A stretch of 64,000 nt of DNA, taken from Ruminococcus sp. Its GTDB lineage: Bacteria; Bacillota; Clostridia; Oscillospirales; Ruminococcaceae. The notes below the pieces were generated by a model that had not been told where the DNA came from, did not search any database, and worked only from the letters and a program-made list of their open reading frames with translations. Made by a program: the position numbers and the translations under genes. The DNA lies in the NCBI GenBank assembly GCA_029055625.1, contig JAIDCY010000027.1:226-64225 (forward strand). Direction: 5' to 3'. Numbering within the stretch: position 1 is the first letter of the stretch; every line of letters begins with the position of its first letter. Of the stretch, positions 22,379 through 31,001 are shown in pieces.

Positions 22379-23935
22379 ATGCAGAATTTTAATTGCTTTA
22401 TACTCGGTTCGGAAAATTCCGGCAAATCCTCGTATATAAATCAGTTCGTCAATGGTATTGCCGATTCCAGATTCTCACCGTTTCATATCGAACACAATAA
22501 TATTCAGACCGTGAACGGTAAAGAAAATCCCGGCGCTTATTACAATAACTCTTTTAAAGTCGACGTATATGAAAAACTTCTGTCTTTAAAAACACAGGAT
22601 ATTTTTTCATTTTCCATAAGCGACTATGCCGGAAAGATTATTGAAGAAAAAAATGAACAGTCTGAATCATATAAAAAACTTAATTCAGATTTACATGATG
22701 CTGATTTCCTTATCGTTATGCTTGACGGCGATTTATTTTCCGGTGAGAGCAAGGAAAAAACAGTTAAAAAAATAAAGAGAAAATGTTCAAGACACTATAC
22801 CCCTCTTATATCGGTATACTCGGAAAACAAACTTTCGCCGGAAATAACATTTGTTGTTACAAAATGTAAAAACGTATTCGCTACCTATGACGAACAGTCC
22901 GCCTTAAATATCGTGAAAGAATCATTTGACGGTGTTTTTGTTGAAGATAACGACAATCAGCCACAGATAACATTTATTGAAAATTTTCAGGAAAGCGGTT
23001 TGTTCATTCCTCTTGCCACCGCTATGAAACATTTCATAAACATAATCGGAAATCAACTGAATGATAACCTCGACGAACAAAACAAAAAGTTACAGGATGC
23101 CATAAATGATAATGAGGACTTCCTCCGGGAACAGGAAGACAGACTACTTCTGAAAAATCCCTTTAAAATGAAAGAGGCACGGGAAAAAATATCAAGCCTG
23201 AAACATCAGATACAATGTAATGAAAATATACGTTCCGAAAGCCGGACACAGGAATTTATTTCTGATATGAACAATATTCTTTCCAGAGAACAGGAAACAA
23301 ACAGAAAGTTCATTGATTCTATATTCAATCCGGAAACCACTCCTGCTCCCGCAACTACTGAAAAGGATTCTTCATGTACCGGATGTATCGCAATTATTGT
23401 ATTACTGATAATTATAATATTTATTCTTGTAAAACTGGTCAGCTGTGGTGCGAACTTCATCAAGAACAAAAAGGATAAACCTGATAATACATCTTCACAG
23501 ATTACACAGAATATTGATAAAAAAGCGTTATATTTCGATGATGACAATATGCTTGTAATCGATACGGATATTATCGGACAGCCACTGAAAAAGGTAAAGA
23601 AAAAGCTGGGTAATGAACTTGATGTTGAACCGGAATACAATGTCACATCATATGATGAACCCGTTTATAACTATAAATTTCTTCATAATGACGGATTTCT
23701 TCAGTTTACTTTTGACGAATCATATGACAGACTTTTAAAAGTTCAGTTTTTCGATTACCGCTCATTCGATGATGACGTATATGATACCGCCTGCGAAATG
23801 TACGGCAAACCGACAGAACACGAAGGCTCATACACTGTGTTTAATGTAGATGATAACACCGATTATGGTATCATGGAAGCCACTGCCGACGGAGAAACGG
23901 TATTTGTACAGGCGTATGCGTATACAGAAGATTAA
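22379..23935 (+). CDS. TRAFAC-type GTPase-like protein with coiled coil, TM helix and extracellular C-terminal domain
   Basis: G1 GSENSGKS, G3 DYAG, degenerate G4 VVTKCK; TM CIAIIVLLIIIIFILV; paralogous to the next gene. Confidence 0.7.
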   Translation: MQNFNCFILGSENSGKSSYINQFVNGIADSRFSPFHIEHNNIQTVNGKENPGAYYNNSFKVDVYEKLLSLKTQDIFSFSISDYAGKIIEEKNEQSESYKKLNSDLHDADFLIVMLDGDLFSGESKEKTVKKIKRKCSRHYTPLISVYSENKLSPEITFVVTKCKNVFATYDEQSALNIVKESFDGVFVEDNDNQPQITFIENFQESGLFIPLATAMKHFINIIGNQLNDNLDEQNKKLQDAINDNEDFLREQEDRLLLKNPFKMKEAREKISSLKHQIQCNENIRSESRTQEFISDMNNILSREQETNRKFIDSIFNPETTPAPATTEKDSSCTGCIAIIVLLIIIIFILVKLVSCGANFIKNKKDKPDNTSSQITQNIDKKALYFDDDNMLVIDTDIIGQPLKKVKKKLGNELDVEPEYNVTSYDEPVYNYKFLHNDGFLQFTFDESYDRLLKVQFFDYRSFDDDVYDTACEMYGKPTEHEGSYTVFNVDDNTDYGIMEATADGETVFVQAYAYTED

Positions 23936-23967
23936 AAAATTTTAATATAAATAAAGGAGTTTTTAAA

Positions 23968-25008
23968 ATGGCAGACACAAGATTTACAGCTTTAGGACTT
24001 TCCGGAAGCGGAAAAACCTGTTACGTTCTCGGTATGTATTACGAGATGGTAACAGGCATGAAAGGTTTCACCCTCAAGACAGCTAATGAAACAGCATCAA
24101 AACTTGAAGACTGGATGGATAAACTCGACGACGAAACAGGGGCTGACAGATTCCCTGCCGGTACAGGTCTTACGGAAGTTTCAAACTATGCTTTTGACAT
24201 GAACTATCAGAACAAATACGTAATGAGTTTCGACTGGATGGATTACGGCGGACGTACTCTCAGGGAAAAGGAAAAAAATCCGCAGGCTTTTGCAGAACTT
24301 CAGAAATCTATCAAGGAATCAACAGCTCTTTATATCTTTATCGACGGTGAGCTTCTCTGTGAGGAAGAAACGGAAGAAAAGATTAAAAAGGTTAAAAGAA
24401 AATGCGGACGTATCATAAATCCGTTTATTACTGATTTTATTCAGGAAAACGGCTCAAACCTTCCGCCTATCGTATTTGTTATCACAAAATCCGACCTCTG
24501 CAGAGAGTACATAAAAAGCACCGGGGAAGTATATGACGTTATTTCCGAATCTTTCAGCAGTGTGTTCGGTAAGGACGGCAGATGTTATATAACCACCGTT
24601 TCACTCGGTGAAGATATTGAGGAAGAAGACGGCGAAGCAGACCCGATAAACATTCAGATTCCCTTCTTTATCGGAATATATCATGAATTTCTCAATATAT
24701 GCTATGGTATCAAATATCAGATTGAAGAGGATGAAAGGGGTCACCGTGAGGCAATAAACAGAAATCAGAATGAAATCGCACGTCAGAACAACAGATGGTT
24801 CTTCACTGACTATGACGCTATTTCACAGGCAAGAAGCAATATCCAGAATGCGGAAGCAAGTATTGCAAATAACAAGGAATACCTTAAATATATCAAAAAA
24901 CTTCTTCTTTCCGTTGCAGGAGAACTTACAAGACTTAGCAGTAATTTCGTACTTATAGAAGGTGGCAAGGAAACAGACTTCTCCGCTGACGAAGCTTACG
25001 AATTTTAA
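23968..25008 (+). CDS. TRAFAC-type GTPase with C-terminal coiled coil
   Basis: G1 GLSGSGKT, G3 DYGG, G4 VITKSD; strong RBS AAGGAG. Confidence 0.8.
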   Translation: MADTRFTALGLSGSGKTCYVLGMYYEMVTGMKGFTLKTANETASKLEDWMDKLDDETGADRFPAGTGLTEVSNYAFDMNYQNKYVMSFDWMDYGGRTLREKEKNPQAFAELQKSIKESTALYIFIDGELLCEEETEEKIKKVKRKCGRIINPFITDFIQENGSNLPPIVFVITKSDLCREYIKSTGEVYDVISESFSSVFGKDGRCYITTVSLGEDIEEEDGEADPINIQIPFFIGIYHEFLNICYGIKYQIEEDERGHREAINRNQNEIARQNNRWFFTDYDAISQARSNIQNAEASIANNKEYLKYIKKLLLSVAGELTRLSSNFVLIEGGKETDFSADEAYEF

Positions 25009-25019
25009 GGAGGTAATAT

Positions 25020-26429
25020 ATGAAAGCATATCCTTTGATTTACAGCAGAACAAAAAATGATGACTTCGTGCCGGATTTTCTGGCACGTCCGGCTGACATA
25101 AACTATGAAACAGCATTGAAATACGTTGGAAATTCCATCGCAAACCTTGATGCATTAAATGGTATAAGATACAATATATTCAGGGTTGATGACTATTGCG
25201 TATATGGTGTTTCATGCAGAACGAAAATACTTTTAAGCAAAATTGAAGAAACTTCCGCATTAAGTCCGGAAGCTGTCGAAAATGCGAAAAACTACCTGAA
25301 AGACTGTAAAGGAAGAAATATCGTCGCATTCATAGGCTTTGCCATACCGGTTACGGAAGCGGTATCCGGAAGTCTGCCTGATATCGAACTTTCCGATTAC
25401 TGGAAAGTATATCAGGAATATCTTGAGCATCAGTGGGAAGATATGCACACACATTCGGAACAGCTCACCACTCCGGAGATAACGACAGGTAAAAAGTCAT
25501 ATACTTCCACGTATAAACCCGATACTGAAAATATTCAGGAAAAGTATATAGTAAAGAAGTTCCGGGAAAGTACGGCATCAGAGCAGGCGGTACTTGACTA
25601 TTTCACAGACAGGATTCTGAATCACAAAGAAGATATATCATTTATTTCTGACCTCGTCTATAAGGCAGACTGGGACAGTATGAATTTCAGTCATGCCTAT
25701 GTATCCGACACGCTTTATAATTCTATCCTGAATTCCGCTAAATCTTTCGCATCTTCAGCTTCTTCTTCCGTTTTTCCGGAAAGTTCACAGAAAACGGTAA
25801 GAAGTGAAAGGTCTCCGAGTGTAGCAGAACAGGCTAACAGCAGAACCCGTCCGGGAATTTACGGCAGACCCTCACAATTCAACATACCTGCTCCACCGCA
25901 GAAACCGACTGAATCAGAAAAAAAATCTGAATCAGGAGGTTTAAAAAAAAATACGGGCATTCATTCCCTTTTTCGCAATATTCCTGATAGTTCTGCTTAT
26001 AGTACTATTGGTCGCACGAAAGCCGGAGACTCAACCGGAAACAGCCAATACGCCACCGGAGAATCAATCAGAAGCAGTAAATACGCCACCGGAGAATCAA
26101 CCAGAAGCAGTCAATTCGAATCCGGAAGCGTAAACAGAAACAGTCCATACGGAAACGTACCCAAAGTAAGTCCATACGAAACCGGAAACACAGAAAAAAA
26201 CAGTGCATACTATGAACAACTCATCTGTGACAACATCCGGAAATACGAACAATACATCATCCGGGACAGAAACCAATGTATAATTTCTCCCGAAAAAGAT
26301 ATGGGATTCTATAAGTTTATACTAAAAAATGTCGGCTATATGCATTCCGCAAATCAGGTTAATTATCAATATATTTCAAAGGTATCTTTTTCACCGGAAA
26401 AACAACAGATAACAATTTTATTTAAATGA
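25020..26429 (+). CDS. Hypothetical GTPase-associated protein; probable alternative membrane-anchored C-terminus in the +1 frame
   Basis: RBS AAGGAGG; globular N-terminal ~240 aa, then a low-complexity linker; A9 tract at 25943-25951 precedes a +1-frame TM helix. Confidence 0.65.
   Translation: MKAYPLIYSRTKNDDFVPDFLARPADINYETALKYVGNSIANLDALNGIRYNIFRVDDYCVYGVSCRTKILLSKIEETSALSPEAVENAKNYLKDCKGRNIVAFIGFAIPVTEAVSGSLPDIELSDYWKVYQEYLEHQWEDMHTHSEQLTTPEITTGKKSYTSTYKPDTENIQEKYIVKKFRESTASEQAVLDYFTDRILNHKEDISFISDLVYKADWDSMNFSHAYVSDTLYNSILNSAKSFASSASSSVFPESSQKTVRSERSPSVAEQANSRTRPGIYGRPSQFNIPAPPQKPTESEKKSESGGLKKNTGIHSLFRNIPDSSAYSTIGRTKAGDSTGNSQYATGESIRSSKYATGESTRSSQFESGSVNRNSPYGNVPKVSPYETGNTEKNSAYYEQLICDNIRKYEQYIIRDRNQCIISPEKDMGFYKFILKNVGYMHSANQVNYQYISKVSFSPEKQQITILFK
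26047..26112 (+). repeat. Two tandem 33-bp repeats
   Basis: AATACGCCACCGGAGAATCAA(T/C)CAGAAGCAGT(A/C) twice; reads NTPPENQ(S/P)EAV in the +1 frame. Confidence 0.9.
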
Positions 26430-26446: not shown

Positions 26447-26824
26447 ATGGGTGATTTATTCGGTTCATACCGTAGCGTAGGGGCGGAAAAAAGAAACCGT
26501 TCTTTTGAATCCGTTTCAGCATATGAAGAGCATTATATGAAACTTCTGAAGAAATATCTGAACGAAATCAATGAAATTGAAGAAATGATGCGGAATCTGC
26601 GGAAAGAACGTCAGGATTTCTATATGAAACAGCTCCCCGCAATAAAAAAGGCTATGGTTGAAGATGATGTACTTTCCGCCGACTGTAAGGCACAATGGCT
26701 CACCGAACTGCAAAACAATATGGAACGCAGTTTCCAGATAAGCGAATCTCTCATACAGCATTACATAACAAAAAACCTTGAAGAGTTCAAACAGGCTCTG
26801 AAAGATGAAGTAAACAAGGTGTGA
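26447..26824 (+). CDS. Hypothetical helical/coiled-coil protein
   Basis: RBS GAAAGGAG; E/K/Q-rich helical composition. Confidence 0.7.
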   Translation: MGDLFGSYRSVGAEKRNRSFESVSAYEEHYMKLLKKYLNEINEIEEMMRNLRKERQDFYMKQLPAIKKAMVEDDVLSADCKAQWLTELQNNMERSFQISESLIQHYITKNLEEFKQALKDEVNKV

Positions 26825-26827
26825 AAT

Positions 26828-27325
26828 ATGTTCAGAGAAGAAAATTACCGTTTCTGCGTAAATTCCGCATTGCAGATTATGCAGGAACAAAGAAAAAAAC
26901 TATTCAATGACTGTATACACTCTGACCCTACAATATATAACGGTCTTCATTCTTCAGAATCTCCTGCATTATGCCGTCTTTACTTTCAGGCTTACTTCGT
27001 CGAATGGGTTGGTATGCACTGGGAAACCATGTTTGAAATTCTTAAACGCCATAGTGAATACTCTGCGGAACAAAGAAGAAAAATGATACTGTTTTTTGCG
27101 GAATATCTTTCCGAATTAATATCTGAATGCAGTCAGAAAGGATTGCTTGCAAATCTCGCCGTTCCCGAACTTCTGAAAGTTCAGAAAAAACAGCTTAAAG
27201 AAATGATTCAGTTTTCGGGAAAATGGGAACATAACAGCAACAAATTACGTGTTCAGATGAAAAAGGGTCATGAACAATATATGAAACTTATCCGGGAAGC
27301 GGAAGCAGAAGCAGAATCTGAATAA
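26828..27325 (+). CDS. Hypothetical helical protein
   Basis: Starts 3 nt after the previous stop; 165 aa. Confidence 0.65.
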   Translation: MFREENYRFCVNSALQIMQEQRKKLFNDCIHSDPTIYNGLHSSESPALCRLYFQAYFVEWVGMHWETMFEILKRHSEYSAEQRRKMILFFAEYLSELISECSQKGLLANLAVPELLKVQKKQLKEMIQFSGKWEHNSNKLRVQMKKGHEQYMKLIREAEAEAESE

Positions 27326-27349
27326 AACCAAGAAAGGATTAAAAAAAAT

Positions 27350-28111
27350 ATGCTGGAAATGTTTGATAAACTCGATGACATAATATACGCACCGGTTAAC
27401 GCTGTATGCAACTGGGCTCAGGAACCTCTCAGAAAATTTGACCACAAACGAGAGATGGAAAAAATGCAACGCTCCGCTGACCTTCAGATGCAGATGAAGC
27501 AACAGGAAGCAGAGTTACAGGTATTCAATCAAAGGCAGGCAGTGAAAATAGAGGCTGACAGAAAACGTTGGGATGCGGAACTTGAAGCTATGATAGCTGA
27601 CCAGGAAGACAAACGCCGTGACAGACTTGTTGAATCTATCAAGAATTATCAGATTGACCTTGGAAACGCAATAAAGGATATTGTGGAAAGTCTCGGAGTA
27701 ATGTCCCTTGAACTTAGAAGTCGGGCAAATAATCTTCTCATAGAAAAAACAAGGGAATACGAAAAAATACAGGAAGAAGCTATGGATAAATCAATGAAAC
27801 GAATGGAGGATATTCAAAATCGTTTCGCAAATAACGAACGTGTACGTTTAATGATGGAAGATTCTATTATGAATCAGATGAACACTATTGTTGACGCTGC
27901 CGCTAATTTAATAAAAGAACTTTCCGAGGATTTAAAACATCTTAATATGAATACTGACAGCCTCATGCAGATGGGTATGAAAAACATTGATAAATATTTA
28001 TCCCCTATGATACAATCCGCAGGTGTTGCAAACACCAGTATTCAGAGCGAGTACAACAAAAAACAACTGGAAGAAAAACCCGTTATTGACGCTGAATTTG
28101 CAGAAGTATAA
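27350..28111 (+). CDS. Hypothetical long coiled-coil protein
   Basis: RBS GAAAGGA; E/Q/K/M-rich helical sequence; followed by a terminator. Confidence 0.7.
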   Translation: MLEMFDKLDDIIYAPVNAVCNWAQEPLRKFDHKREMEKMQRSADLQMQMKQQEAELQVFNQRQAVKIEADRKRWDAELEAMIADQEDKRRDRLVESIKNYQIDLGNAIKDIVESLGVMSLELRSRANNLLIEKTREYEKIQEEAMDKSMKRMEDIQNRFANNERVRLMMEDSIMNQMNTIVDAAANLIKELSEDLKHLNMNTDSLMQMGMKNIDKYLSPMIQSAGVANTSIQSEYNKKQLEEKPVIDAEFAEV

Positions 28112-28457: not shown

Positions 28458-31001
28458 ATGAAAACAAAAAATTTTTTAGTTTCATTAATGCCGTTTATTG
28501 TTTCTTTATCTTTCATTATGTTCTTTATAACCGGCAACAGCTACAATCCGGCAGTTATTCAGTCTTACGCCACGGAAGGCAGACTTTATAACCAGTATGA
28601 CACAAAGTGGAAAAACATAAAATTCAATAAATATTCAAATACCGCAAATGATATGTATACGTCAGGGTGCGGAATATTTTCTTTCTGTAACGCCATATAC
28701 GCCCTGAACGACAATACACCCGATGCCGTGGAAATTGCAACATGGGCGGTAAACAACGGTTCTTATCAGCCCGGAAACGGCGGAACATATCGTCATCCGT
28801 TCTATAACGCAATCGAATCGGCATACGGCGAGAGGTTCAACTTTAAATTCGAGGGCGATTATTACGGCAAAGTAACTGATGCAAGACTTGTAAACCATTT
28901 AAAAAAGGGTGGTGTTGCTGTAATACACGTATATAACCATTTCATGGCTATTTCCGGATATAATCCGCTGAATAACACATATCTCGTCATAGAAAGTGCG
29001 GTATCAAATACACGTGGTTTACAGCCATACGGCTGGGAAAGTGCTTCAAAAATGAACAGCGGAAATACCGCCGTTGACTGGTATGCATTACTCAGCAACA
29101 AAGAAGGTGTATCTATAACTTCCGGTATGGAGCTTTCTTACGAAACAATACCTAGTTTTCTTGAAAGGGGTGAAGATTTCAGCATACAGGGAAATATAGA
29201 ATCTTATCTGCCGATTGATTCCGTACAGGGCGGAATCTATAATGAAGACTGGTCTGTAAGACAATACGCCGAAGATAAACCACACAGTACATCGTATAGT
29301 CTCGCTCCTTATTTTGATAATCATATAGATTTCAGCCAGCTTGAAGAGGGAACATATAACTATCTTATCACGGCGACGGATTCCGGCGGTAAGGAATACA
29401 CTATAATAAACGTTGAATTTGCCGTCGGTGATTTTGGTATAACCGATTTACAGGCAACCTCAAAATACATAACTATGAGCAGGTCACAGGGTGAGTGCGG
29501 ACAGATAATTTTTTCCTACGAACTTTACGAAGGAGATATTACATTATCATACGAACACGGTGAAAACTGTGTTACAGATTGCGAATTCGGGCAGTGGTCA
29601 GACAAGAATTCAATACCGCTGATTATCAGCGGAACACGTGACGGTACGGAAATAATAACGGTTCAGATGAAAGACACGAACACGAACGAAATAATAGATA
29701 CCGTATATATAATGGTAAAAATTACAAGTGAACCGTTTGAATTTACCGCATCCAGGGATTACGTAACGATAAACAATTCAGAAAGTGAAAAAATAGTGTT
29801 CGGTTACAAAAATTATCCCGGCAACACCTTTTTAAGTTTTGAACACGGCGAGAATGCTATAACGACGTTAAACTGGGAGGGTTGGAATAATAACACGAAT
29901 ACTCTTGACATAAAGGGATACAAACTGGGTGAGGAGACAATAACGGTATCTCTCAAGGACAGCGATAAAGGCGATATACTGGCAACAGTGAAGATAAAAA
30001 TTGTTGTAACGGATTTGAAAACGGAACTTATCGCCTCAGATTCCGCACTTGAAATAGATATGGACAATGACGAAATAAAAAGTATAACATTTTCATATAA
30101 AAACTTACCGGCAGATTCGAGGGGATGCAGTATAAACTATGAACACGGCGAACATAAAGCCGTTGACCTTGAATGGAGCGAATGGAACGAACACCAGATA
30201 ACATTGTATATTCAGGGTTACAGAACAGGCACGGAAAATCTGAAAATAAGATTATACGATAAAACCACTGGCAAATTATACGACGAAAAGACAATAGAAA
30301 TCAAAGTATCGGGAACACCGAAAATAATATCATCAGAAGATAATATTTCATTGAATTATAATAAACCGGAAAGTAAAACGGTTGAATTTACTATGATAAA
30401 ATATCCGTATGACTGTTCAATATTCTATATACACGGTGAAAATCCTGTAACGGAATGTAAATGGAACGGCTGGAACGGCGATACAGACATATTACTGATA
30501 ACACCAACAGCACCAGGCACGGAAACAATCAGAATTGAAATGCGTACAGGAGAAAACGTAATAGTTTCCAAAGAAATAGAAGTTACAGTAACGGCAGAAT
30601 TTAACATTACATTTGATGCAAACGGCGGAAACGTCAGTGTATCCGAAAAAACGGTAACATTCGGCGGAAAATACAAGAATCTGCCATCACCCGTACGTGA
30701 GGGATATATTTTTGACGGCTGGTATACTAAAAAAATAGCGGGAACAAAGATAACAGCCGATACAGAAGTATCAATAACCGATAATCAGACACTTTACGCA
30801 CACTGGAAGGCACAGGTAATAGAGGGCGATTGTAACAATGACGGTGAATTTGATGTTTCAGATGTTGTAATTTTACAGAAATGGCTTGTCGGCAACAGCA
30901 ACGTTAATATAAAGAAATGGAAAAACGCCGACCTCAACGAAGATGATGTGCTTGATGTATTCGACCTTGTGATAATGAAGCGGAAACTTATAAACAATTA
31001 A
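28458..31001 (+). CDS. Secreted dockerin protein: C39-like cysteine peptidase domain, Ig-like repeats, Listeria-Bacteroides (InlB B) repeat, type I dockerin
   Basis: Signal peptide; YNQ.D..W...SGCG.FS...HFMAI.GY papain-fold triad; ITFDANGG...P.REGY.FDGWYT; GDCNNDGEFDVSDVVILQKWL...ADLNEDDVLDVFDL. Confidence 0.8.
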   Translation: MKTKNFLVSLMPFIVSLSFIMFFITGNSYNPAVIQSYATEGRLYNQYDTKWKNIKFNKYSNTANDMYTSGCGIFSFCNAIYALNDNTPDAVEIATWAVNNGSYQPGNGGTYRHPFYNAIESAYGERFNFKFEGDYYGKVTDARLVNHLKKGGVAVIHVYNHFMAISGYNPLNNTYLVIESAVSNTRGLQPYGWESASKMNSGNTAVDWYALLSNKEGVSITSGMELSYETIPSFLERGEDFSIQGNIESYLPIDSVQGGIYNEDWSVRQYAEDKPHSTSYSLAPYFDNHIDFSQLEEGTYNYLITATDSGGKEYTIINVEFAVGDFGITDLQATSKYITMSRSQGECGQIIFSYELYEGDITLSYEHGENCVTDCEFGQWSDKNSIPLIISGTRDGTEIITVQMKDTNTNEIIDTVYIMVKITSEPFEFTASRDYVTINNSESEKIVFGYKNYPGNTFLSFEHGENAITTLNWEGWNNNTNTLDIKGYKLGEETITVSLKDSDKGDILATVKIKIVVTDLKTELIASDSALEIDMDNDEIKSITFSYKNLPADSRGCSINYEHGEHKAVDLEWSEWNEHQITLYIQGYRTGTENLKIRLYDKTTGKLYDEKTIEIKVSGTPKIISSEDNISLNYNKPESKTVEFTMIKYPYDCSIFYIHGENPVTECKWNGWNGDTDILLITPTAPGTETIRIEMRTGENVIVSKEIEVTVTAEFNITFDANGGNVSVSEKTVTFGGKYKNLPSPVREGYIFDGWYTKKIAGTKITADTEVSITDNQTLYAHWKAQVIEGDCNNDGEFDVSDVVILQKWLVGNSNVNIKKWKNADLNEDDVLDVFDLVIMKRKLINN

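Follow-up and report, generated by a model that had tools for sequence, protein, structure and literature searches.

A poly-adenine junction with a membrane helix in the neighbouring frame

The DNA analysed here, referred to as the window, is a 64,000-nucleotide stretch of a Ruminococcus sp. contig (JAIDCY010000027.1). Its forward strand carries a gene that, as assembled, encodes a 469-residue protein in which an N-terminal domain (N-domain) is joined through a disordered linker to a soluble C-terminal domain (C-domain), and the junction between the N-domain and its C-terminal module is the subject of this study (Table 1). A run of nine adenines (A9) spans the codons TTA AAA AAA AAT at this junction and is read as LKKN in the assembled frame (frame 0). 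Lying within a coding sequence, the run is of the length associated with transcriptional slippage (at least about 8-9 A or T), and it contains the ribosomal-frameshift slippery sequence A_AAA_AAA. The GGAGG motif just upstream of the run is kept in the window's clade (GGAGGTTT-A9, GGGAGGTTC-A9, GGGAGGCTC-A9 and GGGGGGTTC-A10). The window's lineage also has a second run, of eight adenines, upstream of the A9; the closest homologues are without it, and both of its alternative frames encounter stops within 10 codons, one of them a TAA that overlaps the start of the A9.

An earlier reading of this DNA made from its letters alone (the sequence-only reading) had pointed to a transmembrane (TM) helix in the +1 frame behind the A9, and our analysis bears this out. 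The +1 frame reads V*KKIRAFIPFFAIFLIVLLIVLLVARKPETQPETANTPPENQSEAVNTPPENQPEAVNSNPEA, with its stop at 26131-33; from the run onward it reads KKIRAFIPFFAIFLIVLLIVLLVARKPETQPET...NPEA, such that with one A fewer the protein would continue through LKKIRAF into a 20-residue TM helix with a 19-residue Kyte-Doolittle maximum (KD19) of 3.31. As a chance background, we used the +1 frames of 1509 open reading frames (ORFs) of at least 200 amino acids from the same 2.5-Mb genome. Open 19-residue windows with KD of at least 3.0 occur among these at a frequency of 7e-5 per window, and the probability of one beginning no farther than 12 codons from a given site is 2e-4. We also held the frame-0 peptide fixed and redrew its codons from family usage, with 20,000 recodings per locus. 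For the window, the observed hydrophobicity was reached in 2 of the 20,000 recodings, and at five of the six loci in 0-40. The +1 helix is more than a product of chance, and the linker codons of frame 0 appear tuned to it, with codons rather than residues under constraint.

The +1 module would make a tail-anchored membrane protein. The predicted isoform has one TM helix near its C-terminus, flanked by KKIR and RK, with 40 residues beyond the helix, and its N-terminus is a confident fold from residue 2 without a signal peptide. The TM frame of the window has no start codon 5' of the helix, the only one being a TTG inside it, and in this frame a TAA straddles the first bases of the run; thus it can be entered only from the N-domain frame. 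Past two TAA stops, the +1 frame stays rich in Thr, Ser and Asn up to about 26283, as the sequence-only reading had remarked. The stretch is real, but it is just the conserved start of the C-domain read off frame, where homologues have AVYTMSNSS. Readthrough of the two TAA stops was considered and rejected, since conservation from about 26199 onwards follows frame 0 and the homologues' TM tails likewise terminate, 25-62 codons on. The proposal that the Pro/Glu tail explains the 33-bp repeat within the linker fared no better. Nothing shows that it does so, and a unit of 33 bp preserves both frames.

The assembled C-terminus is a conserved folded domain

We modeled the full-length protein with AlphaFold (AF2) using 57 aligned sequences. 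The N-domain is predicted with high confidence, and when modeled alone has a predicted local distance difference test score (pLDDT) of 92 and a predicted template modeling score (pTM) of 0.89; 25 of its columns are invariant among 39 sequences. Residues ~250-390, some 70 residues of which represent an extension relative to the linker of the closest homologues, are predicted to be disordered (pLDDT below 50) and coincide exactly with the overlap with the TM frame. Beyond them, confidence rises again over the last ~75 residues. The frame-0 C-terminus is a genuine conserved folded domain, and both products are therefore encoded. The view that the membrane-anchored form is the real protein finds no support in this result.

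A protein search returned 146 relatives, which we label by locus (L001 and so on) and by protein (P0003 and so on). They fall into two architectures that part exactly at the Lys-Lys (KK) motif. About 10 proteins of 380-409 residues have the N-domain, a short linker and a C-terminal domain alignable with the frame-0 tail of the window, with the shared pattern ...YYEQLICDN...ISKVxF...IxIxFK; homologues P0003-P0008 span the window protein from end to end. About 100 proteins of 294-362 residues have the N-domain followed by a TM helix, so that the helix is in frame in most database members. A few others (307-315 residues) end shortly past the KK. The family is rare: a set of 1.84 billion proteins yields 80 representative clusters of it at E <= 1e-10, and of the 401 genomes in the taxonomic family to which the window belongs, 2 carry it; the genome of the window has no paralogues of the gene.

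The C-domain is in frame at L001, L003, L004 and L007, which share 53-55% full-length amino acid identity with the window, and in a fifth further lineage represented by the isolate genome of Ruminococcus albus 8 (L010). In every lineage of this form the junction run is A9 to A11, and all five of these loci have a hidden +1 helix behind it (KD 2.64-3.56). By its own account, the sequence-only reading would have been refuted by orthologues that conserve the frame-0 C-terminus and lack the TM helix. The C-terminus (...YYEQLI...ITILFK) is indeed conserved; the helix, however, is not lacking and sits in the +1 frame of the orthologues.

These comparisons bear on whether the register of the window is an artifact. 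If the homopolymer had been miscalled and the true run were A8, the tail-anchored form would be the real one and there would be no switch. Homopolymers are error-prone, the genome is a draft of 151 contigs, and the prevalence of the in-frame helix in databases would fit such an error. Nonetheless, we regard a miscall or assembly error as scarcely credible: the frame-0 domain is conserved and confidently folded, and at least six lineages, one of them represented by an isolate genome, have orthologues with it in frame. Moreover, an error would change only the reported register, and both modules would still be encoded and conserved.

Relatives with the helix in frame conceal the C-domain

The sequence-only reading missed the relatives in which the TM helix is in frame and the C-domain hidden, as well as a third, truncating register. 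In TM-form lineages the -1 frame is open for 100-125 codons from the run and closes just before the next gene. We built a C-domain hidden Markov model (HMM) from annotated C-termini only and then iterated it. The first pass recognized hidden frames at L011 (E 1e-31), L008 (4e-11), L032 (2e-6) and five other loci (0.002-0.01). One iteration added L020 (2e-6), L017 (1e-5) and L027/28 (5e-4), and L030 reached 0.01 after a second. The matches fall in the predicted hidden frame only, with none in the TM or third frames, and an alignment of annotated and hidden C-domains reveals a common pattern of helix, strand, helix and two strands.

At every locus at which both frames are recognizable, the TM frame is the C-domain frame +1, while the third frame closes within 3-22 codons. 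Three loci (L008, L024 and L032) are assembled in this dead frame, and each retains both modules undamaged in its two remaining frames. All three registers are thus represented among assemblies: into the C-domain (the window and R. albus 8), into the TM helix (most members) and into the dead frame. The helix codons at TM-type loci are GTN, ATH and GCN, and their -1 reading is a linker rich in Gly, Ser, Asp, Cys and Asn (for example GGIGGGDCCNNR). Because the helix codons read as a flexible linker one frame off, the two codings are mutually tolerant.

Could the unused frame be a relic, left by a recent frameshift that swapped the architectures and not yet decayed? The loss of the C-domain frame in some lineages is in keeping with this idea. 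However, lineages with no more than 35-60% protein identity have kept both frames intact, in both polarities; the hidden helix is maintained by codon choice; and a homopolymer of A8-A11 is present almost everywhere. We consider a functionless relic very improbable.

Two comparisons concern the junction itself. The N-domains of L011 (P0015) and L007 (P0004) are 60% identical and their C-domains 82%, and a 2-nt indel directly after the run swaps the in-frame module with the A9 retained, which suggests module exchange or recombination at the junction. In remote members, at ~30% identity, a KK motif recurs 5-20 residues before a C-terminal helix. One locus from a remote subfamily (L037; G138:C113, gene start 1501; 35% identical) has an A7 run with the TM helix in frame and a +2 frame, open for 141 codons, that is similar to the helical C-terminus that P0147 has in frame (blastp E 0.002, small database). 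This resemblance is suggestive only, and the subfamily may use the same trick with a different soluble module.

The run is conserved and its length varies between near-identical genes

Among 28 distinct homologous sequences, the run is A9 in 22, A8 and A10 in two each, and A7 and A11 in one each. It is kept even though AAG makes up 25% of the Lys codons in the rest of these genes. Outside the N-domain few columns approach invariance, those of KK among them, and the residues around KK vary (Gln, Ser, Leu, Asp, Glu or Met before; Thr, Asn, Lys or Met after).

Run length was compared between assemblies. R. albus 8, with A11 and the C-domain in frame, differs by a single gap from L049/L050, two metagenome contigs representative of five, which have A10 and the TM helix in frame; nucleotide identity is 99.2% over 1300 nt. 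Similarly, a single mismatch and a single gap separate L048 (A8, dead frame) from L016 (A9, TM helix in frame) over 1250 nt (99.84% identity), and the protein of this A8 allele is 100% identical over 295 residues to A9 proteins from 18 contigs (P0021 versus P0026). Genes that are nearly identical therefore differ in run length and, with it, in frame. P0057, another A8 dead-frame allele, is found on 14 contigs, with A8 in 10 of the 10 places shown and from different samples; its recurrence is hard to explain as error. The persistence of a dead-frame register makes sense if slippage during expression still supplies functional isoforms.

The family is inconsistently annotated in public data. At L038-L047, which are A8 alleles, the C-domain frame is called as a separate overlapping gene of 129 residues, whose ATG start lies 21 nt ahead of the run's end and 13 nt 5' of its first A. 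At L016, L018, L019, L022 and L025-L028, an A7 run ~70 nt 5' of the A9 (ccAAAAAAAgt) also gives a frameshifted database protein, P0036, and P0053 is frameshifted a few codons past the A9, within a stretch rich in ACA and AAC.

A poly-A run that may select among three C-termini

Altogether, these findings lead us to propose, with a probability of roughly 0.78, that the conserved slippery run selects a tail-anchored, a soluble-domain or a truncated isoform, in part through slippage at the RNA level, which we infer. The run would mark the boundary between a shared cytoplasmic N-domain and two C-terminal modules in overlapping frames. One module would be the flexible linker with its folded soluble domain of about 75 residues. 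The other, one base downstream in phase, would be the Lys-flanked TM helix that yields a tail-anchored protein, and the third phase, with its early stop, would leave a bare N-domain. Each A lost would rotate the register from C-domain to TM helix to truncation and back to C-domain. The assembled register of the window would thus give the soluble form, and the anchored form would need A8 (or A11).

Judged from the assemblies, both modules and the run are conserved, all registers are seen and near-identical genes differ only by run length, which indicates slipped-strand variation of the DNA between assemblies and thus probable phase variation; heritable changes in run length would arise in this way. 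In addition, RNA polymerase probably slips on the run, by analogy with the A9 of Thermus dnaX, which would produce a mixture of isoforms in any register. The idea that the A-tract is a slippage or phase-variation switch between soluble and anchored forms was already part of the sequence-only reading, and the co-conservation of the run with both frames, together with the run-length alleles, supports it.

A mixture of isoforms could also be generated by the ribosome. Programmed frameshifting on the A-run would yield the second isoform from homogeneous mRNA, and we consider this unlikely. A_AAA_AAA is the classical slippery heptamer of dnaX, on which Escherichia coli ribosomes make a -1 shift. 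The heptamer is present here, the C-domain lies at exactly -1 in loci with the TM helix in frame, and GGAGG or GGGAGG lies 3 nt 5' of the run in the window, L001, L003 and L007. The direction of the required shift differs, however. It is +1 (one A fewer) for genes of the window's type, -1 (one A more) for the TM type, and both for dead-frame alleles, such that no single direction is conserved. Since polymerase slippage on a homopolymer lengthens runs as well as shortening them, this variation by lineage favors polymerase slippage over one-directional ribosomal frameshifting. Ribosomes would have to shift +1 in the window's clade, possibly aided by GGAGG in the manner of prfB, and -1 on A_AAA_AAA wherever the TM helix is in frame. 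The +1 shift of prfB uses a slow A-site codon, and no such codon is found here. GGAGG encodes a conserved Gly-Gly, and R. albus 8 and the TM-type loci do not have it. Furthermore, the run varies from A7 to A11, even between near-identical genes, and the 80 nt downstream of it contain no unusually stable fold at 12 loci (z from -1.65 to +1.0).

Alternatively, at loci with the TM helix in frame, ribosomes could re-initiate at an internal ATG after the stop of the TM ORF and make the C-domain as a separate protein, with window-type genes as secondary fusions. An ATG in the C-domain frame, +113 to +187 nt past the run, is present in 8 of the 9 such loci examined, at L017, L020 and L023 it lies a few nt past the TM-ORF stop, and a separate 129-residue ORF is called in A8 alleles. 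These ATGs are, however, without a Shine-Dalgarno motif and lie inside helix 1 of the C-domain. The C-domain frame is open from the run itself, its upstream stop being only 0-23 nt 5' of the run, and fusions of the N-domain and C-domain through the run exist in six lineages. Re-initiation also leaves the conservation of the run unexplained, and we think it improbable.

Several observations weigh against selection among three isoforms. The C-domain frame is lost or damaged, with A9 kept, in the TM-type loci L015, L016, L019, L022 and L025-L029. The soluble isoform must be dispensable in some lineages, and the run there can only switch the anchor on or off. The long open C-domain-frame ORFs of L009 and L010 are not significant against the HMM, and a -1 frame that is open across a helix made of NTN codons is in part automatic. 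From the lineage of the window itself, A9 is the one allele recorded. Finally, many contigs are low-coverage metagenome assemblies in which single run-length calls could be errors, although the recurrent A8 and A10 alleles argue against miscalls.

Genomic setting

The gene is the third of an operon-like series that begins with two GTPase genes (Table 1). The 346-residue protein of the window is a borderline match to PF19975 (27.0 bits, cut-off 27) and scores 26.2 with PF19993; the PF19975 match is free of any weak or faint mark at L004, L011 and L049. A gene for a GTPase of 346-350 residues, with matches to Pfam DO-GTPase1/2 at the threshold or close to it, lies directly 5' of the homologue wherever the upstream flank was recovered, and the same trio of genes follows at homologous loci. 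Pfam, NCBIfam and PADLOC provide no family for the protein or for these three conserved downstream genes. The weak Pfam matches over 57 members are mostly to small TM-protein families and are apparently driven by the helix. A fold search with the full-length and N-domain models returned only a weak match in the PDB, between the N-domain and TagF of the type VI secretion system (T6SS; PDB 9t0n; E 2.5e-3, TMq 0.29, rmsd 6.4 over 193 columns), a similarity between models and structures that we treat as a lead and not as an assignment.

Table 1. Features at the junction and in the surrounding window (positions in the 64,000-nucleotide stretch)
Feature	Position	Strand	Basis or remark
tmRNA gene, tag ARKNITVTRNSQLMAA	21123-21491		~0.9 kb 5' of GTPase operon
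Two upstream GTPase genes, same operon: 518 aa MMR_HSR1/DO-GTPase2-like; 346 aa DO-GTPase1/2-like	22379..25008	+	Pfam
Assembled gene (A9 register), 469 aa: N-domain, disordered linker and soluble C-domain	25020..26429	+	ORF and translation
N-domain, residues 1-248, common to all predicted isoforms	25020..25763	+	AF2 pLDDT above 90
Second run, A8, 17 nt 5' of A9, this lineage only; context SEKKSESGGLKKN	25918..25925	+	Sequence
GGAGG (Gly-Gly codons), Shine-Dalgarno-like, 3 nt 5' of run	25935..25939	+	Sequence
Slippery run A9, codons TTA AAA AAA AAT (LKKN), junction of N-domain and C-terminal module	25943..25951	+	Sequence
Predicted +1-frame tail on loss of one A: KK-IR-TM helix-RK-Pro/Glu tail-stop	25945..26133	+	Translation
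Frame-0 linker overlapping TM frame, predicted disordered	25952..26201	+	AF2 pLDDT below 50 for residues 274-390
Predicted TM helix AFIPFFAIFLIVLLIVLLVA, +1 frame	25957..26016	+	KD19 3.31
33-bp tandem repeat, 2.8 copies, 86% matches, inside dual-coding linker; lineage-specific	26023..26115	+	Insertion relative to homologues
Soluble C-domain, residues 395-469, alpha-beta-beta-alpha-beta-beta, frame 0	26202..26426	+	AF2 pLDDT ~95; HMM; alignment
Three conserved downstream genes: 125, 165 and 253 aa, no family match	26447..28111	+	Same trio at homologous loci

At L001 (9116-13209) and L003 (4607-8756), the five-gene cassette is followed by genes for Amidoligase_2, GATase_6/7, DUF1643 and a serine recombinase; TerD and WYL/WCX genes lie upstream at L001. 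These surroundings point to a mobile, defence-island-like setting. tmRNA genes, of which the window has one upstream of the GTPase genes, are common integration sites for islands. Downstream in the window, a protein of 847 residues (28458-31001) has a type I dockerin together with a Listeria-Bacteroides repeat, which suggests a Ruminococcus-like host that bears a cellulosome.

For DO-GTPase systems, a role in conflict close to the membrane has been predicted, with GAP1 as the constant "third" protein (Kaur, Burroughs, Iyer, Aravind 2020, PMC7159879). As described in that paper, they resemble the present operon in having a DO-GTPase-type gene directly upstream, a conserved "third" protein just downstream, frequent TM components and mobile or variable genomic contexts. 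They differ in that our protein has no detectable GAP1-N/M/C domain, and the passages of the paper on these systems mention no frameshift or poly-A feature. GAP1 families are absent from the Pfam matches of P0001 at E <= 1 and from the 25 most frequent of the 55 families matched over 57 members. Because the gene occupies the GAP1 position but has no GAP1 domain, we call the operon, on its sequence features, DO-GTPase-like only and not a member of the DO-GTPase/GAP1 system.

Within such an operon, which appears to be borne on mobile elements and of the conflict type, the isoforms would alter the location or the binding partners of a GTPase-associated protein. We further speculate, tentatively, that the run is a three-position selector working on two time scales, in which run length would set the default register and slippage would supply minority isoforms, with mixed N-domain complexes tuning how the GTPase system is tethered. 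A helix of Val, Ile, Ala and Leu that becomes a flexible linker rich in Gly, Ser, Asn and Asp in the neighbouring frame is what would enable the dual coding, and such overprinting might be a general, hitherto undescribed recipe.

Significance and comparison with known systems

Few cellular bacterial genes are known to gain more than a single useful product by polymerase slippage, the main cases being dnaX in Thermus, mxiE and the transposases of insertion sequences (IS). Here, a whole protein family appears to be built around a slippage site, and the alternatives are a membrane anchor and a soluble domain rather than product and none. The family also shows that a TM helix and a disordered linker can share DNA in two frames. 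Gene callers split, truncate or mis-type these genes: entries of 294-469 residues with or without a TM helix are members of a single family, and genes that are nearly identical appear with different C-termini. Annotating this family and similar poly-A junctions therefore requires all three frames. R. albus 8, a cultured isolate with A11, makes the idea directly testable. Literature searches on slippage, phase variation and defence returned no description of the present feature.

The proposed outcome is reminiscent of the editing of the Ebola virus glycoprotein (GP) at a site of seven adenines, which produces either soluble sGP or GP anchored in the membrane, the two having the same N-terminus, and a minor third-phase product. 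In both cases polymerase stuttering on an A-run would pick a soluble or a TM-anchored product. The viral system, however, involves a viral RNA polymerase on an RNA template and shares no homology with this bacterial cellular or mobile-element gene.

The closest cellular parallel is dnaX of Thermus thermophilus (tau/gamma), in which transcriptional slippage on an A9 gives ~50% alternative product and mRNAs in all three phases (Larsen et al. 2000 via Baranov et al. 2005, PMC1088944). Both are sense-strand A9 runs in a cellular gene at a domain boundary, with a shared N-terminus and differing C-termini. The alternative frames of Thermus dnaX merely terminate, whereas here two phases encode conserved modules, the TM helices and C-domains, in overlapping dual-coding DNA. 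The present family also has run-length alleles in its DNA. Shigella mxiE (T9) and IS transposase fusions likewise join two overlapping ORFs via a slippery A or T run (PMC1088944), but yield one extra fusion product and not a membrane or soluble alternative.

The DNA-level variation, in turn, is similar to homopolymer phase variation at poly-G/C tracts of Neisseria and Campylobacter and in restriction-modification genes (PMC5084427, PMC8355987, PMC12707154), where the length of an intragenic tract shifts the frame between near-identical strains; here too, the gene set is conflict-looking. Classical tracts are ON/OFF switches and species-specific contingency DNA, whereas in the present family each of two registers out of three gives a C-terminus of its own, and conservation of the tract extends across bacterial families. 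The feature is best described as a variant on known slippage and phase-variation mechanisms in an uncharacterized protein family.

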